In this document: in pieces, positions 3,217 through 62,741 of the stretch
Layout: each line of letters begins with the position of its first letter
Numbering within the stretch: position 1 is the stretch's first letter
Made by a program: the position numbers and the translations under genes
Assembly: GCA_963788205.1 (NCBI GenBank)
Contig: CAWBGG010000002.1
Span: 193,988 to 257,987 of the forward strand
From: an uncultured delta proteobacterium
GTDB lineage: Bacteria; Desulfobacterota; Binatia; Binatales; Binataceae
Length of the DNA: 64,000 nt
Direction of reading: 5' to 3'
Notes under the pieces: model-generated
What the model saw: the letters and a program-made list of their open reading frames with translations, nothing else
Databases searched by the model: none
What the model was told of the DNA's origin: nothing

Positions 3217-5562
3217 TCAGTGCGGAGGGCCGGGCCGGTTGATTTCCTTGATTAGCGCCTGAGCGTCGGCGTTTCCCGGAGCCAGGCGCGCGGCTTCGCG
3301 GGCAAGTTCGAGCGCTTCGCGGTCGCGGCCCATCTTGTGTAGCAGACGGGCGGCGGAAACTCGGCATAAGGTGTCGGTGGTTGGCGCGAGCATAATCGCA
3401 CGCTGATAGGCCGCCAAAGCTTCTTGATCGCGATTCTCGCTCGCGAGCAGAAAACCCAGCGCAACTTCAATCCGTCCCTCATTTGGATAGTTGGATGCCG
3501 CCCTTCGCAGGGTCTTTTCCGCGGCCTGGGTGTCGCCCGCGGCGAGCTCGACATTGGCGCGGGCGAGCTCGGCTGACGGTTCACCTTCCGGGAGCGACCC
3601 AGCCCGGTCGAGCGCCGCCTCGGCGTCGGCGCGGTCGCCCTGCGCGCTATAAAGACTCGCGAGCATAGCGTAACCAGTCCACGGGGGGGTCGTCATCAGT
3701 TGCAGTGCCCGGGAAATTTCGATCGCGCCTTCTTGCGCGTGGCCACGCCGCCAGTCGAGGACACCCATCCCATAGAGCGCGGCCGGGTTGTCGGGATCAA
3801 TGCGCAAGGCGTTGGAGAGATCCTGACCGACGGCATCAACACTGCCTTCCATCTTGTGAAGATTCGCCAACACCACGTACATATCGGCTGAAGGATGGCT
3901 CAGCTCGCCGACCGACTCGCTGATTTCCCCTGCCGCTTCGGCCGTGCGGCCCATCTGCGCGTGCACAAGCCCGAGGCTGTAAAGCGTTTCGACGTCGGCG
4001 GGCGCCAGACGATGCGCGGTTTGAAGCTCGCGTTCGGCGCCGACGTTGTCGCCCCGGCGCGAAAGCGCCGCCGCAAGCCCCGCGTGCCAGGTTGAGGACT
4101 CCGGAGACCGCGTCATACCGTGCATGCACAATACCTCGTCGTTGAGCCAGAAGTGCTGCACGTGCCAGAGCACCGCGACGTAACTGAGCGCCAGCGCCGC
4201 GGCCGCGATCGGCGCCAGGCGCGCGGCGCGCACCCATCGCGCAACGCTGTGAATCAAGTCGGCCAGCAGCACGCACGATCCGACCGAGCTCAGATAGAGA
4301 TACGAGTCGCAGACGATGTTGTCCTGCAGGCGCGAGCCTAGAGCCATGGTGGGAGCGATCGCGATTACGATCCAGGCGGCCCAAAACACCCGCGATCGGG
4401 CGCGCCCGCCTTTGCTCATGGCCAGCAGGGTGATGATCGCCAGTGCGATCAGGGCCAGCAACGGCAGGTAGAAATCCGCCGCCGCAGCGCTGCGAACGAT
4501 GGCTATCGGATGGACCGGGTCGGCGAGCCACGGAAGCGCGAGCAGCGCGAGGTCCCAACACAGCGCCTTCGGCACCGTCAGAAGGGCTTCCGCAGTGCTC
4601 AGGGTTGGTGCCGTCCAGCCCATCACCGAGCCGAGCACCAGCCGGCGCACGATCAGGTAGGCGGCCATCTCGCCGGCGAAGGGCGCCGCGCCAACGACGG
4701 CGCGCCAGACGCGCGACGCAAATGATGTTGCGCGGGGATCTTCGGCAGAGCCCGGCGATCCTGACAGGAATAAGTATGCGGCGATCAGAGCCGGAAACGA
4801 CACCGCCGACTCGTGAGACAGCAGCGCACCGGCATAGAGGAGCAACGCGGGCAGTCCGGGGCGCCATCGCGCGCCGCTCCGGCCGCTCACCAGATAAAAC
4901 GCCGCGAGCTCGAACGCCGCCGCCAGCACCAGTCCGCCGCCACCGCCGGGCCAGACCACCGATTCGGCGTTGATCGGGATGACGCCGAACAGCAGCGCGG
5001 TCACCAGCGCGGTACTCTGATCGCCGGTGACGCGCGCTGTCACCTTGAATACCAGCCAAATCACCAGCAGATGCAGCCCGATCATCGCTGCATGCCATCC
5101 GACCGGGTTCAGAGCGAAGAGGTGATAGTTCAGGCCGAACCAGGCCAGCAGCAGCGGCCGGTAGCGCGGCTTGTGCAAGCCGAACCACAAGAAGTCGCGA
5201 AAAAACGATTCACGGAAGAACGACCAACGCGCGATACGGGGGTTGTTGACGATCAATTGATCGTCATCCCAGACGAAGTCGTTGCCCAGGCAGCGCAGAT
5301 AGCCGAGCCCGGCGACCAGCATCACGCCGCCAAGCATCAGTCTGGCCCGCCATGGCGAGACCGCGTCGGCAGCCCTGGCCGCGGGCCCGACTTCAGCCCC
5401 GCGATAGCCGGATTGGGCGGAAAATTCGGCGCTGGGGAATCGCACCCGGGCCTGCGTATGGTTCAGGGGTGAGACTTCGGCGGCGGCTTCATCGGGAACG
5501 AAGACAGAACCGAGAAGTGCACCTTGCTTTGACTCCGGATGGAGTATTGGTAGCCCAGCCAC
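3217..5562 (-). CDS. TMTC-like membrane protein (DUF1736-type transmembrane domain + C-terminal TPR repeats), paralog 1 of 10
   Basis: 781-aa ORF. True start probably near 5337 (MLGGVMLVAGLGYLRCLGNDFVWDDDQLIVNN...). N-terminal multi-TM region carries the Y-L-R-x-L-G-N-x-F-V-x-D-D and YRPL/W..NY.LFG..P.GWH motifs; C-terminal half has repeated TPR-like A..Y..A......A units. Confidence 0.75.
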   Translation of the reverse strand: MAGLPILHPESKQGALLGSVFVPDEAAAEVSPLNHTQARVRFPSAEFSAQSGYRGAEVGPAARAADAVSPWRARLMLGGVMLVAGLGYLRCLGNDFVWDDDQLIVNNPRIARWSFFRESFFRDFLWFGLHKPRYRPLLLAWFGLNYHLFALNPVGWHAAMIGLHLLVIWLVFKVTARVTGDQSTALVTALLFGVIPINAESVVWPGGGGGLVLAAAFELAAFYLVSGRSGARWRPGLPALLLYAGALLSHESAVSFPALIAAYLFLSGSPGSAEDPRATSFASRVWRAVVGAAPFAGEMAAYLIVRRLVLGSVMGWTAPTLSTAEALLTVPKALCWDLALLALPWLADPVHPIAIVRSAAAADFYLPLLALIALAIITLLAMSKGGRARSRVFWAAWIVIAIAPTMALGSRLQDNIVCDSYLYLSSVGSCVLLADLIHSVARWVRAARLAPIAAAALALSYVAVLWHVQHFWLNDEVLCMHGMTRSPESSTWHAGLAAALSRRGDNVGAERELQTAHRLAPADVETLYSLGLVHAQMGRTAEAAGEISESVGELSHPSADMYVVLANLHKMEGSVDAVGQDLSNALRIDPDNPAALYGMGVLDWRRGHAQEGAIEISRALQLMTTPPWTGYAMLASLYSAQGDRADAEAALDRAGSLPEGEPSAELARANVELAAGDTQAAEKTLRRAASNYPNEGRIEVALGFLLASENRDQEALAAYQRAIMLAPTTDTLCRVSAARLLHKMGRDREALELAREAARLAPGNADAQALIKEINRPGPPH

Positions 5563-5957: not shown

Positions 5958-6162
5958 TGCGGTAACCACCCTGAACCTACTCACAGATTGGTATCCTCCT
6001 CTGCGTATGGCGTCCTCGATATGACGAGGGATGAGAGACTTCGATCTTGTAGCAGCGCAAGCGCGGTTAAGTCGAGTACCCAAATGATGAAGGTTTGGCG
6101 GCGCGCAGATCGAATCGTGACGGCCGGGAATGATTCGCTGCAGGTCTTGCAAACGGTCCACG

Positions 6163-7476
6163 CTAGGCCGCACCCGAGCTTGCTACGGCGGCGGCAACCG
6201 CGGCCCTTGGCAAGCTGCGATCGGGTTTGCGGCAGCGCATGATCATCTCGCTGCGCGCAATGTACATCGTGTCCTCGACCTCGAAGCCATGGCGCTCGAG
6301 AATCTCCGCCAGGCTCTTGCGGGTGTAGTGCGTGATGTGTTCATCGCGGTAGCCACCGGGGACAAGGAATCCATATAACGGCTCGATAATACGCCATCCC
6401 AGGGTTGCGTAATCCGGTGTCCCGATAATCAGTGTCCCGCCCGGCTTCAGCACGCGGTCAATTTCGCTGAACAGGACTTCGTCGTAGGCCACATGCTCGA
6501 TAACTTCGGAATGGATCAGGCAATCGAAGGCCCGGTCCTTGAACGGCAACGCCATCGCCGAGCCCCGCGCCAGCGGTATTCCGCGCCGGCGCAGGAACCG
6601 CAGCTTGTCGAAGTTGATGTCCATGCCGATCGTGTTGTTGAGGCTCTGCACGATCACGCTCGAGCCGCATCCCACGTCGAGCGTGCGTCCGGTCGCCCGC
6701 GCCCAGAAGGTCGTAATCCGATGGCGCCTGCGCTGCCAGAAGCGCTGAAGAGGTATGGCGCTATAGAAGGCGCGTTCGTCGTAGTCGGCCGATTCGACCG
6801 AATTACGCAACCCCCAGAGCTTGGCCGCCGAGCGCATCAGGTCCCATCCGAAGCGCAGCACGCGGGCGTGCGAGCGGCCGCTGCCGCGCGGGAAGTAGGT
6901 GAAGGGCACTTCGATCACGTTGAAGCCGCGCGCGTAGGCCTTGACCAGCAACTCCTCCAGCACGTCGAAACTCCGACCTTCGAGCTTGATTCCCTCGATC
7001 GCCTGCCGGCGGTAGAGGCGAAACCCGCTCGAAAGGTCGCGCACCGGCATCGAGAGCAGCCGGCGCAACCCGCCGTTTAACAACTTGCTCAACGCGCTGC
7101 GCGTCCATGGGCCGTAGGAGGCGCCGCCGCGGACATAGCGCGAAGCGATCACGATGTCGGCCTGGTTGCGGGCCCGCCACATCCTGGTCACGAACTCGGG
7201 CTCGTGCGACTGGTCGGCGTCCAGCGTGAGAATGTAATCGCCGCGGGCTTCAGCAAGGCCGGTCTCGGTGGCGCCGGCGTAGCCGGGCCGGCGTTCGGGC
7301 ACCACCCGCGCGCCCAGCGCCGCTGCGGCGTCCTGGGTGCCGTCGCGCGAGCCGCCATCGATGACGATGATCTCGAAATTGATGCCCTCGCGGGCGAGCT
7401 GCGCGGCCAGCCGCGGGATGAGCGCGGTCAGGTTCTCGCGCTCATTGATAACCGGCAGGATTACCGAGAGATCCAT
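6163..7476 (-). CDS. bifunctional GT2 glycosyltransferase (polyprenyl-phosphate sugar synthase, DPM1-like) fused to C-terminal class I SAM-dependent methyltransferase
   Basis: N-terminal domain MDLSVILPVINERENL...IIVIDGGSRDGT...LTLDADQSH is a DPM-synthase-type GT2 signature (DxD-type motif). C-terminal domain LDVGCGSS...DCLIHSEVIEHV...LKPGGTLIIGTPDY is a SAM-MTase (motif I G-x-G-x-G, motif post-II). The ORF extends to 7590 but MDLSV at 7476 is the likely start. Confidence 0.75.
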   Translation of the reverse strand: MDLSVILPVINERENLTALIPRLAAQLAREGINFEIIVIDGGSRDGTQDAAAALGARVVPERRPGYAGATETGLAEARGDYILTLDADQSHEPEFVTRMWRARNQADIVIASRYVRGGASYGPWTRSALSKLLNGGLRRLLSMPVRDLSSGFRLYRRQAIEGIKLEGRSFDVLEELLVKAYARGFNVIEVPFTYFPRGSGRSHARVLRFGWDLMRSAAKLWGLRNSVESADYDERAFYSAIPLQRFWQRRRHRITTFWARATGRTLDVGCGSSVIVQSLNNTIGMDINFDKLRFLRRRGIPLARGSAMALPFKDRAFDCLIHSEVIEHVAYDEVLFSEIDRVLKPGGTLIIGTPDYATLGWRIIEPLYGFLVPGGYRDEHITHYTRKSLAEILERHGFEVEDTMYIARSEMIMRCRKPDRSLPRAAVAAAVASSGAA

Positions 7477-7647
7477 TGAAAATCCGGGTTTCGGTGCGGG
7501 CCCCAAGGCCGTGTGCGCCGCCATTGTATCGTGCGGTCGGCGAGGTTCAAGTGGGCCTATCATTAAGGCGCCGCCGCGGCCGCGCAACAATCATCAGCCG
7601 GTGCCGGAGATCGATACAATCTGTCGCAAAATCGGGCACTTGGACGG

Positions 7648-10186
<2,539 letters not shown>

Positions 10187-14280: not shown

Positions 14281-14492
14281 CCCGTCGCACTCCCGTTTCT
14301 GAAAATCCGTCCTCCTCAGCATCACAGCGTGATGAATTCTATGCAGACGGGCCTGATATTGCTAGCGCTGATCTCTTGCGGCGCGCGGGAGAATCCGTCA
14401 GGGCAGGGTAAAACGCGCGCGGGGGGCGAGCGCGAAGCCGGGAAGCGGCCTGCCGACCATCGCTGCCCGGACGCCGCGGCCGGAAATCGGTC

Positions 14493-15819: not shown

Positions 15820-17954
15820 TCAGTGTTGCGGCGTTGCGCCTTTGATCTGGCTCATCAGGCTCGCAGCGCCAGGGTCATACGGATCAATCTGCAAGGCCAC
15901 GCGGCAGTCGTCGAGCGCCTCACGGCTGCGTCCGTGCGCGCTAAGCAATCTGGCGGCATAGACGTATGGACGCGGGTCCTGCGGCTTGAGGTCGATAGCA
16001 TGCTGAAGCGCCGCGAGCGCTTCGTCGTCGCGGTCTTGATCGGACATGAGCAGGCCGAGCATCGTCCACACGCGTTGGTCGTCCGGATAGCGGCCGGTGA
16101 GGTCGCGCAAGGACTTTTCCGCGCCGATCTTGTCGCCGTGCCGCGCCGCCATACGCACCCGCATGAGGGCGACTTCCTGGGCGCCGCCAGGCCGGGCCTC
16201 GGCGAGCTTGAGGATCGCCTCGCTGCGATGCTGGTCGCCGTCGAGATTGTAGAGCTCGGCCAGCTTGGTGTACGTGTCGACGGGGACGTCGGGATCCAGT
16301 AGCAGGGCGCGCCACAGTTCCATTTCGGCCTCGCGGTTGCGGCCGAGTTGCACGTAAAGCAGACCCAGGTGCACGAGGTTATAGACGCCGTCGAGGTTCC
16401 TGAAGTCGGGGGTCAGGTTGCGCCATTGTTCAAGCTCGCGCACCGCCCCTGGGAGGTCGTGGCGCCGCTGGAGCGCGCCGCTCATTTGCGCATGCCAGAT
16501 GGCGGCTTCGGGAAACTCCTCGATACCGCGCTGCGACATTGTGAGGGCGTCATGCCAGTAGTGCAGCGTGCTCCACAACGACGCCGCACATACCAGCAGC
16601 CAAGCCGCCATCCCCGCCCATACCAATCGGCGATAGAAATCGCGCCGCGCGAAGCCAGCCAGCACGGTGGCGGCCATGAGGCACCATCCGAACGACGGCA
16701 GGTAAAGGTATCGGTCTTGCACGACCATATCGAAACGAAGGGCCGACGTGTTCATCGCGGGCGCGATCGCAACCGCCATCCAGCCGGCGCAAAACAGGTA
16801 CAGCCGCCGGCGCGGGGAATTCATGATCGCCACGACCGCGAGCGCGAGGGCGGCGATGACCATCGTGGCGGGCATCCAGAACCCCGATGCGCCGATACTC
16901 GCCGGTGGGAGCAGGCGATGCGCCGGGCCCGCCGTCCACGGAACCACCAGCAGCATCGCATAGGTTGCGAGGACTTCGGGCACGCTCATCAAAGCCTGCG
17001 CGGTGGTCATGTGATGGCCGTGCGGCGGGCTGGTTATGGCCCCCACGGCCAATTTGTGTATGGCCAGATAAATGAAGACCTCCGCTACGAACGGCAGCAC
17101 ACGGGCAATCGCCAGGCGCAGGCGTACTTTCAGTGCCGGGGTGCCGGCAGGCGATTCGAGCAAGAAGACGTAGAGCGCGAGCAGCGCTGGAAACGTTATA
17201 GCGCTCTCGTGCGACAGGAGCGCGCCGGCGTATAGCAAGAGCCCAGGCCATGAGATGAACTGCTGCCGCCGCTCGTCACGAACTGGTAGAACGCTGCCAG
17301 TTCAAGCGTACCGACCAGCGGCAGATCAACCCCAGACGGCCACGCGAGCGAGTCGGCGTGAACCGGGAGCAGACCGAACAGCGCGGCCGCAACGAGCGCG
17401 CTCTCGAATTCACCGGTCAAGCGCTCGGCGATCTTGTATACGAGCCAGACCGCGACCAGATAAAGCAGGATCTGAGTGACGTGCCATCCGACCGGGTTGG
17501 CGCCGAAAAGCCAATAGTTGAGCCAATACCATTCGAGCCACACTGGCCGATAGAAAACTGTGACATGGGCCTGCGGATTCCGAAACCAGGCGGCGTCGAG
17601 GTAGAAAGCCTTCCAGGCAAATGACCACTGGCCGATGTAGTGGTTGGTAAGGATGTAAGATTCGTCGTCCGAGACGAAGTTGTTGCCCAGGCATCGCAGG
17701 GACGCGAGCGCGGTGACAATCAGCACCGCGGCCAGCATCAGGCGCTCGCGACCGGTAGCGAACCCGGATAGTCCGCGGGAATCGTGCAAATCTCGACCGG
17801 GCGAGCGCGCAACCTCTGGCGAAGCCAGTGACGGCGAGCGGCTGGAGCGCCAAGTCTTCATTTGACGATCATACTGAACGCGCCGCCGCTCCAGGTAACG
17901 CACCCTGGCGGTCGCCGCAGCGGGCAACAATTGTCCCGGGGCGGTGACGATCAA
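15820..17954 (-). pseudogene. TMTC-like membrane protein (DUF1736 + TPR), paralog 2, interrupted by a frameshift near 17270-17295
   Basis: N-terminal piece is ORF 17196-17954 (...LASLRCLGNNFVSDDESYILTNHYIGQWSF...LELAAFYQFVTSGG). C-terminal piece is ORF 15820-17238 in the -1 frame (MLYAGALLSHESAITFPALLALYVF... + TPRs). Shifting one nucleotide within cagttcgtgacgagcggcggcagcag restores ...FYQFVDERRQQFISWPGLLLYAGALLSHESA..., which is colinear with the intact paralogs. Confidence 0.6.
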
Positions 17955-23162: not shown

Positions 23163-23166
23163 CGCG

Positions 23167-30242: not shown

Positions 30243-30290
30243 GCCGGTCGCATCAGAAGGTCGTAACGCCGGAACGCGCGGAGAATTGCG

Positions 30291-31773: not shown

Positions 31774-33763
31774 GTGAACCACCAATTTGATGTGCGCGAC
31801 TCGACGGCCGGGTCCGCGATGAGGCGGGTGGCGCTGGCGGCGATTCTGGTTCTGGCGGCGCTGGTGTACCTGCGATGCCTCAGCGACGGCTTCGTCTACG
31901 ACGACAACATCCTGATCGTTGGCAACCATTACCTGGGCCAGTGGTCATTCCTGTGGAAGTCGCTGTTCAGAGACGAATACTGGTTCCAGGACCCGTTCCA
32001 TCTGCCGCAAAGTCCCCGTTATCGTCCGCTACTGCTGATCTGGTTCGCGCTGCAATACCGCCTTTTCGGACTCAACCCGGTGGGATGGCACGCGACCATG
32101 GTCGCAGTGCATCTGCTGGCCGTTTGGCTCGTATTCAAAATCGCCGCGCGTCTGACCTGCGATATTCGGGCCGCGTTACTGGCGGCGCTGCTGTTCGCAT
32201 TGATGCCGATTCACGTCCAGGCCGTGGCATGGGCCACGGGCTTCGGATTGGCGCTGACTGGCGCGTTTCAACTGGGAGCGTTTAATTTCTTCATGCAGCG
32301 CACCGCGGATGGGCACCGCCGCTGGCTGGTCTGTCTGGCACTCTATGCCGGCGCGCTTCTAAGCCACGGCGAAAGTGCCGGCCATGTTTCCCGGGCTGGT
32401 TGCGCTCTACAGCTTCATCTTCGAATCGCGCGGCCCAACTTCGCGCGAAGGGTCTCAATCGGCCCCGCTCGCCCGCCGCATCCGGCACGGGCTGGTCTGC
32501 GCGTCGCCCTTTATGGCGGAGACGCTCATCTACCTGTCGGTTCGCAAGCTGATACTCGGCAATCAGGCGTTGGGTACGACGAGTATAATAACTGCCGTTC
32601 AATTCGCGGCCACTGCGCCGCGAGTGATGGCGGCCTATCTGGAGTTGCTCGCGATGCCGTGGCTTGCGACTCCAGGCCATCGCGTGCTCCTGGTCTCCAC
32701 TCTGAGCGCGCCGGCGTTCTGGCTGCCCGCGATAATTCTCGCATCGCTGGCGGCGGCGGTGTTCATGCTTTTGATAGAGCGCCGTCGCCGGGAGCTCTAT
32801 GTGTTCTGCGCGGGCTGGATCGTGATGAGCCTGGCTCCGGTGATGTACCTGCCGGCGCTTCGGCCTGACCAAATCGTCGCGGATAACTATCTGTATACAG
32901 CTTCGGCCGGTTCGAGCGTTCTGATCGCCGATTGGATTGTCCACTTCTCGCGCCGGGGCACGTGGTCAGCGCGGCTGGCCTGGAGCGCGGTCGCGGCGAT
33001 GATGCTGGTCTGCGCGGTGTCGCTGTGGAGGGCGCAAGCCGTATGGCATGACAACCTGAGTCTGTTCTCGCGCTGCGTGCAGGACTTTCCCGAAGCGCAG
33101 ATCTGCCACTCCCAGCTCGGCACGGCGCTCAAGCGCAGCGGCGACTTGGCCGGCGCGCAGCGCGAATTGAGAGCTGCGCACGAGCTGGGTCCCGATCCGG
33201 TGACGCTGTTCGAGCTGGGGCAGGTGGATGCGCAACTCGGACAGGTCGATTTGGGCGCCCAGGAAGTCGCCGCCGGGTTGAGCAGCATGTCCAATCGCTC
33301 GGCCTACGGCTACATGGTTTTGGCCCAACTCTACTATCTGAACGGTGAGCAGGCGCGCAGCGAGGCCATCCTCAAGTACATGGAGACGCTCTTCGACGGC
33401 GCTCATGCCGCCGGCCTGGCCAGGGCGCGGATCGAGGTCGACCGCGGCGATGCGGCCGGTGCGGAGACTCTTCTGCGCAGCCTGACCGCCCGCTATCCGG
33501 ACGACGAACGATCTTGGGCGATGCTCGGGCAGGTGCTTGCCGGGCAGGGACGCGTCGGCGAAGCCCTCTCAGCCTATAACGAAGCCGCCAAGGTTGCGCC
33601 AGGTGATCCTGGGCCTTGGCTCGCCGCCGCCCAGTTGCTGCACGCATCCAACCGCGACCGCGAGGCGCTCGAGCAATGCCGCCGGGCGCTGGCCGCTGCG
33701 CCCAACAATCCCGACGCTCTCGCTCTCATGACGCAGATCGAGCGGGGTATCGCCAAGCGTTAA
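31774..33763 (+). pseudogene. TMTC-like membrane protein (DUF1736 + TPR), paralog 5, interrupted by a +1 frameshift near 32365-32385
   Basis: N-terminal part in frame of ORF 31774-32868 (...LVYLRCLSDGFVYDDNILIVGNHYLGQWSF...YRPLLLIWFALQYRLFGLNPVGWHATMV...LYAGALLSHGESA). Continuation in frame of ORF 32375-33763 (..MFPGLVALYSFIFES... + TPRs ...LALMTQIERGIAKR). The tail of the first ORF beyond about 32380 is a stop-free GC-rich shadow frame. Confidence 0.6.
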
Positions 33764-50197: not shown

Positions 50198-51109
50198 CTA
50201 GATGTAGAGAATTATAATGTCAGCCGCGACCCACAGCACGACCGACATCAGCAGGGTGCGATCTTTCAGGAGCAGCCGCGAGGGCTCACCGCCTTCACGC
50301 TTCTCGACCACCAGGTACAGGTAGCGCAGGATGCCGAGCACCACGAAGGGCACGGTAAGGTACAGATAGCCGGTACCGAGTTTGCGTTCGACGTCGGGTG
50401 AGGCGGTGTAGATCATGTAGCCCACCAGGGTCGCGGAGGCGGCGATCGATATCATCTGGTCGATGAGCCGGACGCTGTAATGGTCCAGCGCGCTGCGATG
50501 AGACGACGCCGCTACGCCCAGCGCGATCAGCTCATGGCGCCGGCGGGCCAGCGCGAGCAGCAGCGCGAGCACGAAGGTGATGAAGATCAGCCAGGGAGAA
50601 ACTTCGACGTGAATCGCCAGTCCGCCGGCAAAAGCGCGCATCACGAAGCCGATCGCGATTGTGATGACGTTGACGATCACGATGTGCTTGAGCCGCAGCG
50701 AGTAGGCAAACTGGAGCGCCACATAAGCGACCGCGAGGCACGCGAAGCCGGGCCCCAGCGCGAGGCTGAGCACGCCCCCGACCACCCCGAGCATGCATGC
50801 CATCACGATCGCGTCGGGCACGCTCAGCTCGCCGCTGGCGATCGGGCGGTTGCGCTTCTCGGGATGCTTGCCGTCGGTCTCGCGATCAGAGATGTCGTTT
50901 ACGATGTAGCCCAGGCTCGAGACCGCGCAGAACGCAACCAGTGCCATCACGGTGCGCAGATCGTCGCCCAGGTGAAAGAGCCGCTGGCTGAAGATCAGAG
51001 CCGCGAAAATTATCGCGTTCTTCAACCATTGATGGGGGCGGGCAACCTTCCACATCGCCCGCCATCGGGCCGTCCGGACCGGGGGTTCTCTATCTTCGGC
51101 GAGATTCAC
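50198..51109 (-). CDS. UbiA-family prenyltransferase, decaprenyl-phosphate phosphoribosyltransferase-like (DPPR synthase homolog)
   Basis: 303 aa. ...ARPHQWLKNAIIFAALIFS...GYIVNDISDRETDGKHPEKRNRPIASGELS... (NDxxDxxxD Asp-rich motif of the UbiA superfamily, in the context typical of Rv3806c-type 5-phosphoribosyl transferases), 8-9 TM helices. Confidence 0.75.
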   Translation of the reverse strand: MNLAEDREPPVRTARWRAMWKVARPHQWLKNAIIFAALIFSQRLFHLGDDLRTVMALVAFCAVSSLGYIVNDISDRETDGKHPEKRNRPIASGELSVPDAIVMACMLGVVGGVLSLALGPGFACLAVAYVALQFAYSLRLKHIVIVNVITIAIGFVMRAFAGGLAIHVEVSPWLIFITFVLALLLALARRRHELIALGVAASSHRSALDHYSVRLIDQMISIAASATLVGYMIYTASPDVERKLGTGYLYLTVPFVVLGILRYLYLVVEKREGGEPSRLLLKDRTLLMSVVLWVAADIIILYI

Positions 51110-53859: not shown

Positions 53860-55788
53860 ATGACACGACACCCGAGAGTGTGGTTTGGGCTCGCAACGGT
53901 CGCGTGTATTCTTTTTTTGGTAATCTTTTACCCGTCGCAACGCGCCGATAATTCAGTTTCGCCGCGCGTGGCGAACGCCAAGCGGATCAGCTCCAGCTCA
54001 TCGGGGCAACTCGGGAAGGCGCCTGCGGCCAACACCGCGGTCGTCAGCGCGCGTCTCAACCAGAGCTACGATCAACTCGGCTTGGGCTTCGAGCCCAACG
54101 TAGGTCAGGCCGACGGCCGGGTGAGATTTCGCGCCCGCGCCGAGGGTCTGTCCATTTCGTTCACGCAGGACGCGGCCCGGATTCTGCTCAGCCGTGCTCC
54201 ATCCCCGGCCCAAGCCGCGCGGACGCTTCCAATTGGCGACGGTGTAACCGCAAGCAATTCGAAGCATGACTCAAAATCAGGGGTTCTGCGGCCTGCGGAC
54301 AACCTGGCCCTGACGATGAGACTCGAAGGCGCGAACAAAGATGCGAAAATCGAGGGCGTAGACAGGCTTCCCGGCGTGACCAACTATTTCGTCGGCAGTG
54401 ATCCCCGCAATTGGCACTCCGGCATCCCGACGTATTCCAAGGTGAGATACAAAGGCGTCTACCCCGGCGTCGATCTGGTCTACTACGGCAACCATCGCGA
54501 ATTGGAATGCGACTGGGTAGTCAAGCCCGGCGCACGTCCGGACAGCATAAGGCTCGCTTTCGACGGCGCCAGCCGGATTGACATCAACGGCGATGGCGAT
54601 CTGGTACTGGGCACGCCACGCGGGCAAATCCTGCTGCGCAAACCGGTTGCCTACCAGGAATCGGGCGGCAAGAAGCGGCCGATCTCCAGCCGCTATACTC
54701 GTCTGTCCGGCGCGCGCGTCGGCATCGAGCTGGCTGCTTACGATCGTGACCAGCCGTTGGTTATCGACCCGACGCTGAGCTACTCGACTTACCTGGGCGG
54801 CTCGTTCCTCGATTTCGCGAGCGGACTGGCGGCCGACGCAGTCGGCGATGCCTACGTGACCGGAACCGCCTGCTCGGCGGATTTTCCGATTACCCCAAAA
54901 CCGAACATCGTGCAGGCCACTTATGGTGGAAGTTGCGATGTGTTCGTAGCCAAGGTCAATCCGACCGGGACCGCGTTTGTGTATTCTACCTACCTCGGCG
55001 GTCCCAGCGCCGACAGTGGCAACGCGATCGCGGTCGATCAGTCCGGCGCTGCTTACATAACCGGATACGCGGGCTCCGGCTTTCCGCTTACGCCAGCGGG
55101 CGGTTCGGTCGCGCAGCCGAATTTCGGCGGCGGAACTTCGGACGCGTTCGTGGCCAAGATCAGTCCGGATGGCTCGACGTTGTTGTATTCCACCTACCTG
55201 GGTGGCAGCGGAGTCGACGAGGGCGAAGCGATCGCAATTCCCTCGGGATGCGCGGCGAACTGCGACGCGTTCGTCACCGGATATACCGAGTCTTTGGACT
55301 TTCCAGTTGCTGCGGCGCCCAACCTGACCCCCTTCCAGACGGCCAACGGTTGTACCAGCGGCGGCGCGCCTTGTATCGATAAAAACGACGCGTTCGTGGC
55401 GAGGCTGAATTCTTCGGGTAGTGTCTTCAAGTACGCCACCTACCTGGGTGGACACAGCGGCGACGGCGGATTCGCGATCGCAGCTGACGCGCAAGGCAAC
55501 GCCTATGTCGGCGGCATAACCGACGCGATCCTCATTCCGGCCTTCTCACAGAATTTCCCGATCACACCCGCGACCGCGGTGCAGAACACCTTCGGCCAAG
55601 CCGCCGCCACCGGTTTCATCGCAGTACTCAATCCGACCGGCACCGGGCCGCTGTTGTACTCGACCTACCTGGGCGGAACGGGCTTTCAGGCCATCAATGG
55701 TCTGGAGTCTGGGGCCGGATACTTTTGTGCTGACCCCCAATCTCAGCGTGAACAGCATCTATGTCGCGGGCTATGCCTACTCGAATGA
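53860..55788 (+). CDS. giant secreted beta-propeller/BNR protein, N-terminal portion (reading frame broken at ~55711-55714; continues in 55697-58498)
   Basis: Signal peptide [29 protein letters not shown]. Repeated units of the form YSTYLGG-x-x-D-x-G-x-AIAVD--GNAYVTGYT-S-DFP-T (SBBP-type beta-propeller repeats) at least 6 times. The ORF ends in a stop-free GC-rich shadow frame after ...[20 protein letters not shown]. Confidence 0.65.
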
Positions 55789-58498
55789 TTTCCCGACTAC
55801 TGCCGGCGCCTACCAGGTGGCTTTCGGCGGCTTCGATGACGAGTTCGTCGTGCACCTGGTACCGCAGAACAACCCGACCCTCCCTGGCGTGCCGTATTAC
55901 ACGATCGCTTATTCCACCTACCTGGGCGGCACCGGCGATGACAACGGCGGATTAATCGCGATCGACGCGACCTGCGGCGTGGTGGGTTGTGATACCTATA
56001 TTGCCGGCACCACCAATTACACCGATTTTCCGGCGGTGAATTCGTTTCCTCTGCCCGCGCCCAACGGCGAATTGCTGGTCAGCACCGACAACGGCGCGAG
56101 CTTCGGCTTCACCGGCAATCTCGGCAGCATCGGCTCACTCAATGCGCTGGTGGTCGATCCAAGCACCACACCCCATACCATCTTCGCCGGCAGCGCGCGC
56201 AAGGGCCTGTACCTGAGCACCGATGATGGCCACACCTTCGGACCCACCGTGCTTTCGCAGGCGCAGTATGCGACCGGGTTTAATGGTATCGCGATCGACT
56301 ACTCGCCCGGCACCGGCGTGTGCGCCGGCAGCAACGAAAGAGTATTCGTCGGCAATGGGCAGGGGCTGTACCGCAGCACCGATCGGGGCGTGTCGTTCGC
56401 TCAGACCGCACTCAACGGCTTCCCGGTCTCGCCGGTATTCGTCGATAGCAACGCGGAGCCGCCCGCCATCTACGTGGGAACCAAGACTCCGGGCAACCCT
56501 CCGCAGTTTCAACTGCTGAGGAGCGCCGATTGCGCCAACACCTTCGACCCCACCGGGCTTCCGAGCGGCGCCTTCGCCTTTTCGTTGGCTTCTGATCCGA
56601 ACCATAACCCTGAAGCGGTCTATGTCGGCACCAATCGCGGTGTCTTCGTCAGCAGTGTCGGGGGCATACAGTTCACCCAGACCGGAGAGAATTTTCAGCC
56701 TGCGTTCTCAGTGGCGGTCGACTCCAGTGTGAAAAATCCGGCTCCGCCGGGAAGTACCAGTCCCAACTCCAACCTGTACGCGGGCGCTCAAGTCGGACTG
56801 CTCGAAAGCACCGACGGGTTCGCTACGGTCACCGGTCCGGTCAACACAGTCAGCCTCGCCCTCTATGACGTGAAGGTTGATGCTTCGTCCTCCCCTTCGC
56901 ATATCTATGCGGCGGGCAAGCTCAACGATCTGGGCTTTCTGCTGCAAAGCACCGACGGCGGCACGACCTTCAGGGAGATCGGCCCGGCCACGGCCTACCT
57001 GCCGCCGACGACCAGGATCGGTTTGGATCCAGGAGTGACTACCGGAATTGGCTCGGTTACGGGAATCTTTATCAGCCCGTTCCTGGAATATAACGCCACC
57101 GTCGCCAAGCTGAGCGGAGACGGATCGACCCTGATCTTCTCCACGCTGCTGGGTCCATTGAGCGGAGCAGCGAACGATGGCTTCGCCGGCGGCGTAGCGA
57201 CCGACACCCTCGCCGCAACCGGCATCAATCTGGTCTATGTAGCGGGCGGGACCGCCTCGAGTAATTTTCCAGTCGTACCGGCTCCGCCGGCGGTACCGTC
57301 TGCCGCGCAGCCGGCGCTGGCAGGTTCGCTCAACGCGTACGTGCTCCAGATCGGGCTCAACTTTCCAACCCCGACCCCAACCCCAAGCCCGACCCCAACG
57401 CCGACGCCGACCCCTACGCCCACGCCTTCGGAGAGCCCGTCCGCGACGCCGTCGCCAACGCCGAGCGCGAGTCCGACCGCGGCACCGACCTCGTCGGCTA
57501 CCACAACCCCGTCGCCCACCCCAGGTCCGACGGTCACCCCCAGCGGACCCACGCAAACACCTAGCCCCTCACCGACTCCGGTAGGGCCCACTCAGACTCC
57601 GATCAGCGCGACGGCCACGGTCACTCCGACTCCGAGTGGGCCAACTCAGACTCCGATTAGCGCGACGGCCACGGTCACTCCGACTCCGATTGGACCGACG
57701 GCAAGTCCAAGCGGTCCCACCCAGACCCCGGCGCCAACTACTGCAACTGCGACTCCGGTGGCCACCGCTTCGCCTGGCATCGATACTGTGGCGGTTACTC
57801 CGGTGTCGATTACCGCCTCTCCGGGTGCGACGCCGGTGGTCGGGACCTTCTCGGTCACCAGCCCCAGCACAAACTGTCAGCAGAGCCTGACGGACGCGTT
57901 CGTGCTCTTCGGCGACGCGTCATTGTTCACTTCGTCGACGCTGACGGCAACGATCAACGGCGCCAGCGAGACCTCCACGCAGGTTCCGTCTTCGACCGGC
58001 AACACCGACTACAGCTTCAGCCCGCCGATCATCATCCCGCCCGGCGGCACCGTCGACTTCAGCTTGCAGGTCACGATCGCGGCCAACCCAAGCGCGTCGC
58101 TGGCTATGGCCAACCCGCCGCGGCTGGTGCTCGCCGGGATGATCCCGGTTCCCAAGGCGGGCGGGCAGATGGCCGGCCCGATGATGGTATGGCTGGGATG
58201 CCTGGGGATACTCGGCTTGGTAGTGCCGCTCTCGTCGCCGCGCCGCAAACGAGTGCTGATGGCGAGCGCGATGCTGATACTGGTCGCCGCGACGGTGTCG
58301 TGCGACCTGCCCAAGAGCAGCGGTCCATCCAAGCCGTCGAAGACCTCGGCGCCGACCTCGGCTCCAACGCAGAAGCCGACCCCCACGCCGCTGTCTTCCG
58401 ATCAGACCCTGGAAGGGTTCGCGGCCACCGACTGTGTCGGTATGGTAACGTTCACACCTGAAGTGCAAGATTTGGGAACGGTCACGATCAGCAAGTAG
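55697..58498 (+). CDS. giant secreted beta-propeller/BNR protein, C-terminal portion with BNR/Asp-box repeats, Pro/Thr/Ser-rich linker and C-terminal hydrophobic segment
   Basis: Continuation ...[35 protein letters not shown] (same SBBP repeat). Then Asp-box-like [41 protein letters not shown]. Then ~140 aa of [14 protein letters not shown]...[18 protein letters not shown]... Ends with hydrophobic [24 protein letters not shown] and a [15 protein letters not shown] lipobox-like segment. Confidence 0.65.
57358..57790 (+). repeat. low-complexity Pro/Thr/Ser-rich linker-coding region inside the giant secreted protein gene
   Basis: ccgaccccaaccccaagcccgaccccaacgccgacgccgacccctacgccc... encodes [77 protein letters not shown]... 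Confidence 0.7.
57585..57692 (+). repeat. perfect-register 54-nt tandem repeat x2 (encodes [19 protein letters not shown])
   Basis: gggcccactcagactccgatcagcgcgacggccacggtcactccgactccgagt followed immediately by gggccaactcagactccgattagcgcgacggccacggtcactccgactccgatt (4 mismatches in 54). Confidence 0.8.
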
Positions 58499-58650
58499 CA
58501 ATCAGTCCTGGAATCAGAACGCGGCGGCACGCTCCCGACAGGGATGTGCCGCCGCGCGCATTTCCAGACCACCGCACGAATCCTTTACCTCCCCGCGCTG
58601 AGAGAGCCCTCCCGTGATGATGCGCGAGCGGCGCATCGGCGCGGGAGCCG

Positions 58651-60663
58651 CTAATGCGGCTTGGCGCTCTGTTCGATTTCCGTTATCAGCGCCAGCGTGC
58701 GCGAATCATTGGGCGAAGCGGCCAGCGCGAGGTAGCATTCGTCGAGCGCCTCGCGATTACGGTTCATCGCATGAAGCACCTCGGCGGAGAGAAAATGCGG
58801 CATCGGGGCGTCGGGTGTAAGCTTGACCGCCGCTTGGTACGCGGCTAGCGCTTCGGGGTTGCGTCCTTGTGCGGCGAGCGCCCGCCCCAGCGCGGTCCAC
58901 ACGAGGTAGTCATCGGGATGGCTGCGCGCCATCTCGCGCAACATCGCCTCGGCGCCGGCGGCGTCACCATGGGATACTTTTATCTGCGCCCGCGTGAGTC
59001 CGGCGGCCTCGGCGCCGCCCGGCATCGATTCGGCATACGCCAGTTCCGCATCGCGGCGCGCGTCGTCGTGGTTCAAGTCGTAGACCTGCGCCAGCAGCAG
59101 ATGGTTCTCGGCGGCGGGATGCGGCAGATGCCTGATGCCGGCGGCAAGCTCGGCGGCGCCGTCGGCGAGCCGGCCCATCCGCAGGTGCAGAAGTCCGAGA
59201 TCATACAGCGTAAAGGGCGCGTTGGGATCAAGGCTCAGCGAGGTCGCGAGCTGCTGCGCCGCCGCGGATAGCTCGCCGCGTTGCTCGAGCGCACTGGCGA
59301 GCCGGTTGTGCCACATCGCGGCATCGGGACAGCGCGCGATACAGGCGATCGAGAGCGCTTCGTCGTCGTGCCAGAATCCCTGCGCCCGCCAGAGCGCTCC
59401 CGCATACAGGGCCGCCATTGCGATCGCGGCACTCACCGCAAGCCGGCGCGAGGTGGCGCCACGCCGCGCGAGGCGAAACCCGCCGTCGGCAAGTATCACA
59501 CACCATCCCAGCGATGACAGGTAGAGATAACGATCCTGCACCAGCGCCTGCTCAAAGAGCCCGCGCAGATTCATCATCGGCGCGACCGCGACTACCATCC
59601 AGGCGGCGCAAAACAAGTAGAGCCGCCCGCGCCGGTCGCGTCTGGCAATCGCGAACAGGATCGCGCCGCAGGCGGCCAGCGCGGCGAGCGGCAGATAGAA
59701 GCCGGGCGCGCCGAGGCTCCCGACGATCGGCACCTGATGGGCCGGGCCGGCCAGCCACGGCATCACCAGCAGCGCCACGTAGGTCATCACCACGCGCGGC
59801 GCAGTCGCGATCGCCTGCGTGCCGGTCAAATGGGTCAGAGCGTTGGGGCGATTGATGAAACCGAGCACCAGCCGGCGCACAGTCAGATAGGCCAGGGTCT
59901 CGGCCGCGAACGGCGCCGAACTGACGATCGCGGTCCGTACTCGCCGCGCGCGCGGTGAAACGACTTGTCCGGGCTCGATCAGCAGGACGTACAATCCGAT
60001 CAGCGCCGGAAATGCGACCGCGCTCTCGTGGGTCAGAAGGGCGCAGGCGTAGAGCAGTATCGCGAGCGTCCAGTTGCGACGCTCGGCTCCGCCGCGCGCG
60101 ATGAAGAGATAGAACGCTCCCAGTTCGAGCGTGGCGCTGAGCGGCAGCGGGATCGCGGTGGCCCACACCACCGCCTCAGCGTGCACCGGCAGCAGGCCGA
60201 AGAGTAACGCGGCCGCCAGCGCCGGCTGTGTCCCGCCGGTGAGCCGGGCCGCGATCTCGAACACCAGCCATACCGCGGCCAGATGCAAACCGACCATAGT
60301 CGCGTGCCATCCGGCGACGTGGGGTCCGAACAGATGGTAATGCAGGCCGAGCCAGATATCCTGGAGCGGCCGATAGTATGCGCTCGCCGGCAAATGGAGC
60401 GGATCCATGAACCACCATGAATCACGCGTCAGCGACTTCCAGAGGAACGACCACTGCCCGATCTGCCGGTTGGCGATCACCATGTCGTGGTCGTCGAAAA
60501 CGAAGCCGTTGCCTAGGCATCGCAGATAGACCAACGCCGTGGCGAGCAGCACGCCTGTGATCATCAAGGTTCGGCGGCGCGCGTCCTCGCGGGCATTGGC
60601 AGCGCGGCCAGCGACGCGACTTCGACCAGGTGCGCCCGCTTTGACCGGCAGCCCGCGCTTCAT
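58651..60663 (-). CDS. TMTC-like membrane protein (DUF1736 + TPR), paralog 8
   Basis: Start chosen at MKRGLPVKAG (ATG 60663-60661, forming an ATGA overlap with the stop of the upstream paralog); the ORF extends to 60765. ...LVYLRCLGNGFVFDDHDMVIANRQIGQWSF...YRPLQDIWLGLHYHLFGPHVAGWHATMVGLHLAAVWLVFE...LLTHESAVAFPALIGLYVLL... + TPRs. Confidence 0.75.
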   Translation of the reverse strand: MKRGLPVKAGAPGRSRVAGRAANAREDARRRTLMITGVLLATALVYLRCLGNGFVFDDHDMVIANRQIGQWSFLWKSLTRDSWWFMDPLHLPASAYYRPLQDIWLGLHYHLFGPHVAGWHATMVGLHLAAVWLVFEIAARLTGGTQPALAAALLFGLLPVHAEAVVWATAIPLPLSATLELGAFYLFIARGGAERRNWTLAILLYACALLTHESAVAFPALIGLYVLLIEPGQVVSPRARRVRTAIVSSAPFAAETLAYLTVRRLVLGFINRPNALTHLTGTQAIATAPRVVMTYVALLVMPWLAGPAHQVPIVGSLGAPGFYLPLAALAACGAILFAIARRDRRGRLYLFCAAWMVVAVAPMMNLRGLFEQALVQDRYLYLSSLGWCVILADGGFRLARRGATSRRLAVSAAIAMAALYAGALWRAQGFWHDDEALSIACIARCPDAAMWHNRLASALEQRGELSAAAQQLATSLSLDPNAPFTLYDLGLLHLRMGRLADGAAELAAGIRHLPHPAAENHLLLAQVYDLNHDDARRDAELAYAESMPGGAEAAGLTRAQIKVSHGDAAGAEAMLREMARSHPDDYLVWTALGRALAAQGRNPEALAAYQAAVKLTPDAPMPHFLSAEVLHAMNRNREALDECYLALAASPNDSRTLALITEIEQSAKPH

Positions 60664-62741
60664 CGCGCACCCGCAGATTGTCCCGAGTGCGCCTCGCGCT
60701 GGATGGTGGCGATCAGCGCCTGCGCGTTGCGGTCGTTGGGCGCGATCGCCAGTGCGGCGCGGCATTGCGTAAGCGCCTCCTGATCGCGCCCCAACTTGTG
60801 CAGCGCCAGGCCCGTCATCACGCGCGCGAATGGATCACGGGGCGACAGCGCCTGCGCTCGCAGGAAGCAGTCCAGCGCTTGCTGGTGGTTCTTCTCCCTG
60901 ATCGCGGTCATCCCCAGCATCGTCCACGCGCGCGGATCGTTTGGATCGTTCGCGGTGAGGTCGCGCAAAATCGCTTCCGCGCCCGGCAGATCGCCGTGAT
61001 TATATTTCAACTGCGCACGCGCCAGCGCCGCGACGTGCGCGCCGCCCGGCAGCGACTCGGCCTGCTTGAGCGCCGCCTCGGACTTGGCCTGGTCGCCAGT
61101 CAGATCGTAAACCTGGGCCAGGCCGACGTAGGCGTCGGCAGGCGGACTGGCAAGCCGCTTGAGCCCCTCCTCCTGTTCGGCTGCGGCCTGCTTGATATGG
61201 CCGAGCTGGGAATCGACTACGCCCAGGTCGTAGAGCGCGGCGCTCTGGGGATCGAGCTCTAGCGCGGCCTTGAACTCGCGCTGCGCGCCCGCCAGATCGC
61301 TGCGGTCTCTTAATGCCACGCCCAACCCGTAATAGCCGTCCACCTGGTCCGGGCTTTTTTCGATCAGCGCGGCATAGAAGGCCTCGTTGTCGCGCCAGGA
61401 ATACTGAACCTGCCAGAGCACGGCTGTGCAGACGATCAGGAACGCGGCGGTGGCGGCCCACACGATGCGCCTTATTATTTTGGATCGGTCCGCAAGACTT
61501 ACCGCAAAGTCCGCAACCATCAAGCACCATCCGACCGACGCGAAGTAGAGATAGCGGTCCTGCACAAACGCTCGATCGAAAAAGAGTCGAAGATTCACGA
61601 CCGGCGCCATCGCCACCGCTATCCATGCTGCAAAGAATAGGTAGCGGCGGCGATGGGGATGGTTGCGCACGGCGGCCGCAAACGCGGCGGCCAGCACGAG
61701 CACGATCGCAACCGGACCCCAGAAGTGCGGCGATGACGCGCTGGATACCGTCAGCATCGCGCGGCGAGGGCCGGCCAGCCACGGCATCGCGAGCAGCGCG
61801 ATGTATCCAACGATCACCCGCGGGAGGGTCAGGATCGTCAGCGCTGGCGTCAGGTGGGTGATCCACCCCGGCTGATGAAACAGAAACCCCAGCGACAACC
61901 TGCGAGCGATCAGATATCCGATCGCATCGCCCACAAACGGCACGGCGCAAATCAGGCTGCGGCGCAAGCGGGCGAGAATAGTATCGAGCTTGCCCTCCCA
62001 ACTCGCGGGCGCGCCGAGCGGCTCGATCAAAAATACGTAGAGGGCTATCAGGGCCGGGAAGAGCACGGCCGCTTCGTGAGTCAGGAGCGCGGCCGTGTAG
62101 AACAGTAGCGCGGGAAGCCAGCGCGTGGTGCTGGTGGATCGTGTGATGAAGAAATAAAACGCCGCGAGTTCGAGCACACCGCTCAGCGACATGTCAACCC
62201 CGGGCTCCCAGGCCACAGCCTCGGCGTGGAGGGGAATCAGCCCGAAGAGCAGGGCCGCCAAAGCCGCGATGCGGACGTCATCCGCCACCTGCATCGCGAT
62301 CTTGAACACGAACCAGACGCCGACCAGATGCAACAGCACGAGGCTCAAGTGCCAGGGCATGGGGTTGAGACCGAACAGATGAAACTGTATCGCAAGCCAA
62401 ATGTCCTGCAGCGGCCGGTAATACGAACTCTGCGGCAGATGCGCGGGATCGCGATACCAATACGGATCGCTCAGCAGCGATCTCCAGATGAACGACCACT
62501 GGCCGATGAGGCGGTTGCCGACGATCATGTCGAGATCGTCGAGGGAAAAGCGATTGCCCAGGCTTCTCAAATAGGCGCAGAAGGTGACCAACAGCACCCC
62601 ACCCGCTATGGCAGACTCGCGCCATCCACCGAAACCGGCGCTGACGCCTGCCGCGCTTGCGGGCGCAGGAGCCTTGATCGAAACGACCCGCCTCATCAGA
62701 CCGCTAACATTCGGGCGTTTCGCTGCCGCCGGCGCGGCCAA
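60660..62741 (-). CDS. TMTC-like membrane protein (DUF1736 + TPR), paralog 9
   Basis: 693 aa. ...FCAYLRSLGNRFSLDDLDMIVGNRLIGQWSF...YRPLQDIWLAIQFHLFGLNPMPWHLSLVLLHLVGVWFVFK...LLTHEAAVLFPALIALYVFL... + TPRs (...YYGLGVALRDRSDLAGAQREFKAALELDP...). Confidence 0.75.
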   Translation of the reverse strand: MAAPAAAKRPNVSGLMRRVVSIKAPAPASAAGVSAGFGGWRESAIAGGVLLVTFCAYLRSLGNRFSLDDLDMIVGNRLIGQWSFIWRSLLSDPYWYRDPAHLPQSSYYRPLQDIWLAIQFHLFGLNPMPWHLSLVLLHLVGVWFVFKIAMQVADDVRIAALAALLFGLIPLHAEAVAWEPGVDMSLSGVLELAAFYFFITRSTSTTRWLPALLFYTAALLTHEAAVLFPALIALYVFLIEPLGAPASWEGKLDTILARLRRSLICAVPFVGDAIGYLIARRLSLGFLFHQPGWITHLTPALTILTLPRVIVGYIALLAMPWLAGPRRAMLTVSSASSPHFWGPVAIVLVLAAAFAAAVRNHPHRRRYLFFAAWIAVAMAPVVNLRLFFDRAFVQDRYLYFASVGWCLMVADFAVSLADRSKIIRRIVWAATAAFLIVCTAVLWQVQYSWRDNEAFYAALIEKSPDQVDGYYGLGVALRDRSDLAGAQREFKAALELDPQSAALYDLGVVDSQLGHIKQAAAEQEEGLKRLASPPADAYVGLAQVYDLTGDQAKSEAALKQAESLPGGAHVAALARAQLKYNHGDLPGAEAILRDLTANDPNDPRAWTMLGMTAIREKNHQQALDCFLRAQALSPRDPFARVMTGLALHKLGRDQEALTQCRAALAIAPNDRNAQALIATIQREAHSGQSAGAR

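Follow-up and report, generated by a model that had tools for sequence, protein, structure and literature searches.

Animal TMTC1-4 are protein O-mannosyltransferases of CAZy family GT105 that modify cadherins and protocadherins (PMC7801869, PMC10214176). Two further glycosyltransferases resemble them in architecture. TMEM260, which combines DUF2723 with tetratricopeptide repeats (TPRs), O-mannosylates the IPT domains of plexin, MET and RON and has distant bacterial homologues (PMC10214176). Pseudomonas aeruginosa TfpW, a proven pilin O-arabinofuranosyltransferase of 646 residues, has its N-terminus in the cytoplasm, 11 predicted transmembrane (TM) helices and, on the periplasmic side, a DDx motif and a C-terminal TPR domain; it uses as donor polyprenyl-phosphate-D-arabinofuranose, whose synthesis starts with a homologue of decaprenyl-phosphate phosphoribosyltransferase (DPPR synthase) (bioRxiv 10.1101/2020.04.19.049825). 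Prokaryotic homologues of TMTC have been mentioned in passing (PMC7801869). Here, we describe nine TMTC-like genes lying within 60 kb of a 64,000-nt stretch of DNA (the window; contig CAWBGG010000002.1, positions 193,988 to 257,987) from an uncultured bacterium of the family Binataceae. Coordinates are positions in this window, and the nine proteins are named by the start of their locus (e.g. 51256).

An initial annotation of the window had proposed ten paralogous genes with a shared architecture, a membrane domain followed by TPRs. The paralogy is real and far above chance: in an all-versus-all BLASTP comparison of the long open reading frames (ORFs), the listed loci matched one another from end to end (E = 1e-82 to 0; 33–48% identity). 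Their products have about 660–790 residues and contain all of the motif blocks that had been listed (L-G-N-G-F-V-x-D-D, QWSF, YRP, W-x-x-(N/H)-Y-x-L-F-G-x-x-P-x-G-W-H and L-L-(S/T)-H-E-S-A). As the annotation stated, the copies are clearly divergent, with pairwise identities of 33–53%; the membrane domains (mean 44%) are slightly better kept than the TPR domains (39%). The count, however, is nine rather than ten, because a tblastn search with all nine proteins against the window found no additional fragment, and a tenth copy was rejected. Seven of the nine loci are intact, and the other two (15820-17954 and 31774-33763) each carry a single-base frameshift.

We compared this family with TMTC using the alignment of TMTC1-4 membrane domains that Eisenhaber et al. 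published (2021; PMC7801869, supplementary file). The Binataceae family profile matched human and Drosophila TMTC1-4 in HMMER (E = 3e-18 to 4e-32, with the database size nominally set to one million), and hhalign aligned the two over 379 columns of the membrane domain at a probability of 99.9% (E = 1.2e-31). In the reverse direction, a hidden Markov model (HMM) of eight animal TMTC sequences matched all nine loci (E = 4e-24 to 7.5e-18) but none of about 30 other ORFs in the window, including other PMT_2-like proteins. The initial annotation had named composition-driven similarity as a possible artefact. This was rejected, since the hhalign probability of the family profile was 99.9% against TMTC but less than 3% against 13 other window ORFs, of which 12 encode multi-pass membrane proteins. 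The TMTC-like identity proposed for these proteins was thus borne out by profile comparisons in both directions. The motifs common to the two groups are F-V-x-D-D, Y-R-P-L, L-L-F-x-x-x-P-x-H-x-E-A-V, (K/H)-E and (E/D)-R-(V/Y)-L-Y-x-x-S-x-G-(F/W)-C.

The domain labels were less straightforward. Strong Pfam TPR families were found in the C-terminal third of every copy, whereas DUF1736 (PF08409) matched no copy, even at E ≤ 10 on isolated membrane domains. The annotation of the copies as DUF1736 plus TPR was therefore half right, and the paralogy does not depend on the DUF1736 label. DUF1736 corresponds to the TM7-TM8 loop of TMTC, and the human TMTCs all match it at E < 1e-30, with canonical TMTC1 (Q8IUR5) at 3e-19 (PMC7801869). 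The bacterial copies have this loop, and it can be aligned, but they do not conserve the DNPA and DW motifs of TMTC, which explains why the DUF1736 model does not fire. PMT_2 scored 20–26.5 bits in three of the ten sequences scanned (cutoff 26.1), and only a 252-residue fragment reached the cutoff; PMT, the MIR domain and DUF2723 matched no copy. Membership of the PMT/GT39 family was rejected on the marginal PMT_2 scores and the lack of PMT or MIR matches, and membership of the TMEM260 family on the lack of DUF2723. NCBIfam matches to the copies were to TPR families alone, all below threshold. A search of the PDB with the membrane-domain profile returned nothing at E ≤ 10, so that no solved GT-C structure was detectable, and the matches from a full-length PDB profile search and from Foldseek with a full-length model were dominated by TPR proteins. 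More distant bacterial relatives have K-E and D-R-Y-L-Y-L-P-S-x-G-F as in TMTC, and are labelled PMT_2 and TPR by Pfam; DUF1736 is absent among the 25 Pfam families listed for 44 of them. On these sequence comparisons, we place the nine proteins in the TMTC branch of the GT-C superfamily, and DUF1736 is the wrong label for them.

An AlphaFold2 model of full-length 58651, built from a 58-sequence alignment (pLDDT 91.8), shows 11 long TM helices followed by 14 helices that form about seven TPR hairpins; across the family, each copy has about 7–10 TPR units. The membrane domain modelled alone, from a 22-sequence alignment, was likewise confident (pLDDT 88.1) and shows the same 11 helices. The prediction is a GT-C membrane fold with an acidic, catalytic-type residue in the first extracytoplasmic loop. 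Lys and Arg are concentrated in the cytoplasmic segments of the model (22 in about 70 residues, versus 8 in about 153 residues of periplasmic loops), and we therefore infer that the N-terminus is inside and that the periplasmic side holds the Asp-Asp loop and the remaining motifs as well as the TPR domain. In the model, the conserved motifs (the loop-1 Asp-Asp, YRP, H-x-E, H-E and D-(R)-Y-L-Y) lie in periplasmic loops or at the periplasmic membrane boundary.

Two of these motifs, Asp-Asp and Y-R-P, occur in all nine copies and, together with the acidic residue of D-x-Y-L-Y, are invariant over 58 family members. Of the two residue pairs whose conservation the initial annotation had singled out, the first-loop Asp-Asp is thus universal in the window, but His-Glu is not, being Y-D in 51256. 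The H-K of the TMTC S-H-K-S-Y-R-P block is found in 3217 only. The Arg of D-R-Y-L-Y, just before TM10, is kept in five of the nine copies; 3217, 27879, 33798 and 31774 have Ser, Thr or Asn at this position, next to the invariant acidic residue. The presence or absence of this Arg may mark a donor-related split among the paralogues.

Like TMTC1-4, then, the copies have an 11-TM GT-C module and, C-terminal to it, a TPR domain facing away from the cytoplasm, and the two groups are homologous over the whole membrane domain and have motifs in common. The copies differ in being bacterial and periplasmic rather than resident in the endoplasmic reticulum (ER), in the unrecognised DUF1736 with its replaced DNPA and DW motifs, in the absence of the Arg equivalent to that of ER-V-L-Y from four of nine copies, and in number (at least nine paralogues per genome versus four). 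In addition, in the hhalign comparison no conserved Asp of the copies aligns with D169 of TMTC1, the acidic residue of loop 2, and the donor cannot be dolichol-phosphate-mannose as such, nor the acceptors animal-type cadherins. TfpW, compared through its published description only, likewise has an 11-TM GT-C module, a periplasmic DDx and a periplasmic TPR domain, and its DPPR-synthase route has a counterpart here in the DPPR synthase gene beside 51256. Unlike the copies here, TfpW is a single gene adjoining pilA; no pilin gene was found in a scan of ORFs of at least 150 residues, a cutoff above the size expected of a pilin. TMEM260 is a protein-specific O-glycosyltransferase that also joins an 11-TM GT-C module to C-terminal TPRs, but its DUF2723 places it on a separate GT-C branch. 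Finally, PMT/POMT (GT39), ArnT (GT83) and STT3/PglB/AglB showed no HMMER-level similarity to the membrane-domain profile (PDB search, E ≤ 10), and the C-terminal module of the copies is a TPR domain, in contrast to the MIR domain of PMT/POMT and the soluble domain of the oligosaccharyltransferases (OSTs).

The best named homologues come from Candidatus Binataceae metagenome-assembled genomes (MAGs), some of them annotated by JGI as 'protein O-mannosyl-transferase'. Three window proteins are identical to database entries of the source contig (1,337,627 bp), which encodes at least three further members outside the window (P0012, P0048 and P0065). With the count taken beyond the window, as the initial annotation had called for, the copies on this contig number at least 12 in all. 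Four Binataceae MAGs hold at least 13, 10, 8 and 5 copies; such genome scans rest on a single peptide pattern and underestimate both copy number and taxonomic breadth. One scan match lay outside the lineage, in a Blastocatellia MAG (29% identity). Six of the copies lie inside 60 kb of MFD03044 contig_18405. Searched with the membrane-domain profile, the family is very large: 90,325 cluster representatives match at E ≤ 1e-3, 56,716 at 1e-10 and 6,078 at 1e-30.

Six of the nine paralogues resemble a protein from another genome more closely than they do any paralogue in the window. Five of these have placed orthologues at 57–93% identity; the sixth, 3217, has a relative at 67% (the unplaced database protein P0140, 701 residues). 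No closer relative was recovered for 27879 and 33798 (best about 43–47%). The 278-kb contig of a relative (L001) repeats the gene order of the window from 47 to 63 kb: acyltransferases, two overlapping TMTC-like genes, a DUF7948/SBBP gene, a TMTC-like gene, UbiA and a 250-residue gene. Another relative has five TMTC-like genes in a row. Ratios of nonsynonymous to synonymous substitution (dN/dS) to orthologues were 0.24–0.34, indicating purifying selection. Because orthologues exceed paralogues in identity (57–93% versus 33–53%), relatives are partly syntenic and dN/dS is 0.24–0.34, we conclude from the sequences that the expansion is old and maintained, as had been proposed, and lineage-wide in Binataceae. 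The stop of 60660-62741 and the start of 58651-60663 overlap in ATGA (4 nt, 60660-60663), and the same overlap in the L001 orthologues suggests that the two paralogues are translationally coupled.

Table 1. Features of the 64,000-nt window: the nine TMTC-like loci, then their neighbours.
Feature	Position	Strand	Evidence and remarks
TMTC-like GT-C + TPR glycosyltransferase (predicted), long form, ORF 781 aa	3217..5562	-	BLASTP to other copies E 1e-98 to 1e-122; TPR Pfam; TMTC-profile E 1.3e-22; FVWDD and RYRP present, D-S-Y in place of D-R-Y; true start probably lies downstream of 5462, as the ORF shares its first ~100 nt with the upstream DUF4019 gene
TMTC-like, frameshift-split into ORFs 17196-17954 + 15820-17238	15820..17954	-	tblastn frame change; TMTC-profile E 4.5e-20 (repaired protein)
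TMTC-like GT-C + TPR, 672 aa	25510..27528	-	BLASTP, TPR Pfam, motifs; identical to P0036; TMTC-profile E 3.9e-24; orthologues P0033 (93%) and P0039 (79%)
TMTC-like GT-C + TPR, long form, 787 aa	27879..30242	+	BLASTP, TPR Pfam, motifs; TMTC-profile E 7.5e-18; Pro/Ala-rich insert within TPR region; FPFDD; D-T-Y in place of D-R-Y
TMTC-like, frameshift-split into ORFs 31774-32868 + 32375-33763	31774..33763	+	tblastn frame change (32379 to 32387); orthologues P0032, P0037 and P0026 (78-85%) intact
TMTC-like GT-C + TPR, 672 aa	33798..35816	-	BLASTP, TPR Pfam; weak PMT_2 (22.9 bits); FVFDD, D-N-Y; TMTC-profile E 1.4e-22
TMTC-like GT-C + TPR, 699 aa	51256..53355	-	BLASTP, TPR Pfam; identical to P0081; adjoins polyprenyl-phosphate phosphoribosyltransferase gene; orthologues P0069 (88%) and in L001 (73%, UbiA gene alongside there too); dN/dS 0.24
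TMTC-like GT-C + TPR, 670 aa	58651..60663	-	protein used for structure modelling; start overlaps stop of upstream paralogue by 4 nt
TMTC-like GT-C + TPR, ORF 693 aa	60660..62741	-	BLASTP, TPR Pfam; RFSLDD; identical to P0056 from residue 16; database gene call begins at 62696 (678 aa); L001 orthologue 57%, dN/dS 0.34
Predicted DPPR synthase (UbiA family)	50198..51109	-	NCBIfam equivalog NF008977, 275.5 bits vs cutoff 234; PDB 8j8j E 8.5e-35
249-aa single-TM protein	49289-50038	-	downstream of DPPR synthase gene; order kept in L001
13-TM protein	47102-49249	-	weak PMT_2 match; downstream of DPPR synthase gene; order kept in L001
GT2 + S-adenosylmethionine (SAM)-methyltransferase fusion	6163-7590	-	Pfam Glycos_transf_2, Methyltransf; domain order opposite to 8633-10186
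NAD-dependent sugar epimerase/reductase, GDP-fucose-synthase-like	7648-8598	-	Pfam Epimerase; between the two GT2 fusions
GT2 + SAM-methyltransferase fusion	8633-10186	-	Pfam Glycos_transf_2, Methyltransf; domain order opposite to 6163-7590
Secreted DUF7948/SBBP beta-propeller protein, candidate acceptor	53860..58498	+	Pfam DUF7948, SBBP; TMTC-like genes on both sides; split by at least one frameshift (~55713-55724)
Sulfotransferase	19887-20999	-	
DsbA-like thioredoxin with SurA-like N-terminus	13231-14325	-	
M48 peptidase	14493-15728	-	
Acyl_transf_3	30291-31559	-	
Acyl_transf_3	44206-45423	-	
Multi-pass membrane protein	35941-37554	+	
Multi-pass membrane protein	23167-25467	-	
Multi-pass membrane protein	11147-13198	+	
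Multi-pass membrane protein	18183-19979	+	
Multi-pass membrane protein	45485-47014	-	
Multi-pass membrane protein	1072-3201	+	paralogue of 47102-49249
Multi-pass membrane protein	21414-23162	-	paralogue of 62782-63924
Multi-pass membrane protein	62782-63924	-	paralogue of 21414-23162
Very large multi-pass membrane protein, 1309 aa, ~25 hydrophobic segments	37866-41795	+	no Pfam match
Multi-pass membrane protein, 709 aa	42080-44209	+	no Pfam match; adjacent to 37866-41795

By its gene content, the window is an envelope-glycan island in which about half of the genes look like membrane glycosyltransferases (Table 1). The DPPR synthase gene lies directly beside TMTC-like 51256, an adjacency kept in L001, and its predicted product would be the first enzyme toward lipid-linked ribofuranose or arabinofuranose donors. 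The GT2 fusions are candidate polyprenyl-phosphate-sugar synthases, and the reductase between them is a candidate nucleotide-sugar enzyme; their best NCBIfam matches, all below threshold, were AglJ, dolichyl-phosphate hexose transferase and ArnC, and GDP-L-fucose synthase for the reductase. The DUF7948/SBBP beta-propeller gene carries a linker of about 180 residues rich in Pro, Thr and Ser, with PTPTPS-type repeats (S+T 30–40% locally, 24% in the C-terminal ORF), and encodes a hydrophobic C-terminal segment. Its counterpart in L001 is a single gene of 1171 residues with the same PT-rich linker, likewise between TMTC-like genes. Pro/Thr/Ser-rich segments are O-glycosylated in many systems. The sulfotransferase, DsbA-like, M48 and Acyl_transf_3 genes suggest O-acylation or sulfation of glycans together with periplasmic protein handling. 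A chaperone-usher type cluster (Usher and SCPU-domain proteins) adjoins the TMTC-like array in another genome, at positions 1192-5851 of L055 (MFD03044 contig_18405, 287.8-309.8 kb); its surface fibres could be another class of acceptor.

What do these proteins do? By analogy with TMTC, PMT, ArnT and TfpW, the most likely role is periplasmic O-glycosylation of proteins from lipid-linked sugars, a reading toward which we lean with moderate confidence. Proteins are favoured as acceptors because both TMTC1-4 and TfpW, the only characterised bacterial enzyme we found with this architecture, act on proteins. A polyprenyl-phosphate sugar would be made at the cytoplasmic face, with the GT2-type synthases and the polyprenyl-phosphate phosphoribosyltransferase of the island as candidates, and would then be flipped to the periplasmic side. 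There, the periplasmic TPR domain would hold an acceptor, to one of whose hydroxyl groups the Asp-Asp site would pass the sugar. The acceptors would most likely be exported proteins such as the neighbouring beta-propeller protein with the Pro/Thr linker. Old duplications under purifying selection would fit paralogues that serve different acceptors or sugars, and subfunctionalisation is plausible. According to the initial annotation, bacterial members of the family have no established function; this agrees with our finding no study of this clade, but TfpW, with the same architecture, is a proven pilin glycosyltransferase.

A more far-reaching form of this idea is possible but, in our estimate, doubtful: Binataceae might run an extensive system of periplasmic protein O-glycosylation, with at least 12 TMTC-type transferases whose TPR domains each pick a different class of exported protein, possibly using different lipid-linked sugars, including ribo- or arabinofuranose supplied through the adjacent DPPR synthase. 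If true, the acceptor-specific TMTC pathway of animals would have a prokaryotic counterpart, from which it might have evolved.

Several observations weigh against periplasmic protein O-glycosylation by TMTC-type enzymes. DUF1736, which every human TMTC matches, fails on all copies, and DNPA and DW are not kept. The Arg equivalent to the phosphate-binding Arg of TMTC and OST is present in only five of nine copies, and the dN/dS values are on the high side for an enzyme. Neither DprE1 nor DprE2 was recognised in the window, which leaves an arabinofuranose donor unproven. The other PMT_2-type and multi-pass proteins of the island, along with its acyl- and sulfo-transferases, fit glycan assembly equally well.

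The strongest competing explanation follows from these neighbours. The paralogues might instead build or decorate an envelope glycan (a polysaccharide, lipoglycan or glycolipid), with one linkage per copy, in the manner of mycobacterial Emb/Aft for arabinan; the periplasmic TPR domain would then bind the polymer as it grows or attach to export machinery. About 12 further multi-pass proteins, the two Acyl_transf_3 genes, the sulfotransferase and the GT2 synthases are all what such a pathway would bring together, and DPPR synthase feeds arabinan synthesis in mycobacteria. In the BcsC, PgaA and AlgK systems, TPR domains bind polysaccharide. We nevertheless consider envelope-glycan assembly rather unlikely. 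The closest sequence relatives of known role (TMTC1-4) and the closest bacterial analogue in architecture (TfpW) glycosylate proteins. In the window, we recognised no gene for Wzx/Wzy, an ABC exporter or outer-membrane export, and the gene conserved between TMTC-like genes encodes a secreted protein whose PT linker is mucin-like.

A second question is whether all nine loci are functional, since both frameshifts stand in the deposited assembly. In 15820-17954, the tblastn frame changes between 17274 and 17214, and one base is missing at about 17265-17275 (context gtgacg[g]agcgg); inserting it gives an uninterrupted ORF of 711 residues, whereas the deposited gene call is a truncated product of 472 residues (P0259). 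In 31774-33763, there is an extra base at about 32380 (context gcc[g]gcc), whose deletion gives an uninterrupted ORF of 662 residues. If the two loci were true pseudogenes, the array would be partly decaying and seven functional copies would remain in the window. The sequences make this improbable: there is exactly one 1-nt indel per locus, and no internal stop in either after repair. Moreover, 31774-33763 keeps an unusual LLSH-G-ES insertion common to its intact orthologues P0032, P0037 and P0026, and its dN/dS to them (0.31–0.32) is the same as that of intact copies.

Unrelated genes in the same 64 kb are split in the same way, namely the acyltransferase 44206-45423 (about 45118-45149) and the DUF7948 gene (55713-55724, possibly also 57361-57814), bringing the total to 4–5 single-base frameshifts. 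A suspected frameshift in the other acyltransferase, 30291-31559, was rejected; nothing interrupts this gene, and ORF 30253-31374, which overlaps it, is spurious. The closest relatives belong to the Microflora Danica MAGs, a set of Nanopore assemblies (PMC12313526), and contain the same kind of split genes (TMTC-like genes, as in L055, and in L001 the tail of the DUF7948 gene). Because other conserved genes of the window and of related Nanopore MAGs are split alike, the two TMTC-like frameshifts are probably assembly (Nanopore) indels and not marks of dead genes.

That the proteins are membrane-anchored TPR scaffolds or chaperones, like TMTC only in structure, can be set aside as highly improbable: TMTCs were originally reported as adaptor proteins of the ER, four of the nine copies lack the phosphate-binding Arg and enzymatic activity is a prediction, but the Asp-Asp, the YRP and the acidic residue of D-x-Y-L-Y do not vary among the 58 members, all conserved motifs lie on the predicted periplasmic face, where GT-C active sites are found, and genes for lipid-sugar donor synthesis are co-located.

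What we describe is a recognisable type of enzyme in a conserved family expansion, and not a system of a new kind. We found no report in the literature of such expansions or of experimental work on this bacterial clade, public pipelines label the bacterial homologues generically, and our PDB searches turned up no TMTC structure. The main genomic description of Binatota mentions neither TMTC-like proteins nor heavy glycosylation of the envelope or secretome, yet the cell envelope or secretome of Binataceae may be heavily glycosylated. In animals, TMTC1-4 are linked to disease and presumably choose their acceptors through the TPR domain. Nine clustered, diverged and conserved paralogues, together with candidate donor genes and a candidate acceptor, amount to a natural experiment in acceptor and donor specificity. 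The set is compact enough for heterologous reconstitution and structural work, and offers a way into two subjects, the TPR-guided choice of acceptors by GT-C enzymes and the cell envelope of an uncultured lineage from soil.

None of the other multi-pass membrane proteins of the window (about 12) is detectably related to the TMTC-like family. Four of them have sub-threshold PMT_2 matches, one passes both PMT and PMT_2, one has a weak YfhO match and the rest have no Pfam assignment. They include two pairs of paralogues, 1072/47102 and 21414/62782, with identities of 43% and 48%. The proteins encoded by 37866-41795 and the adjacent 42080-44209 are 84% identical over 706 residues, which looks like a recent tandem duplication.

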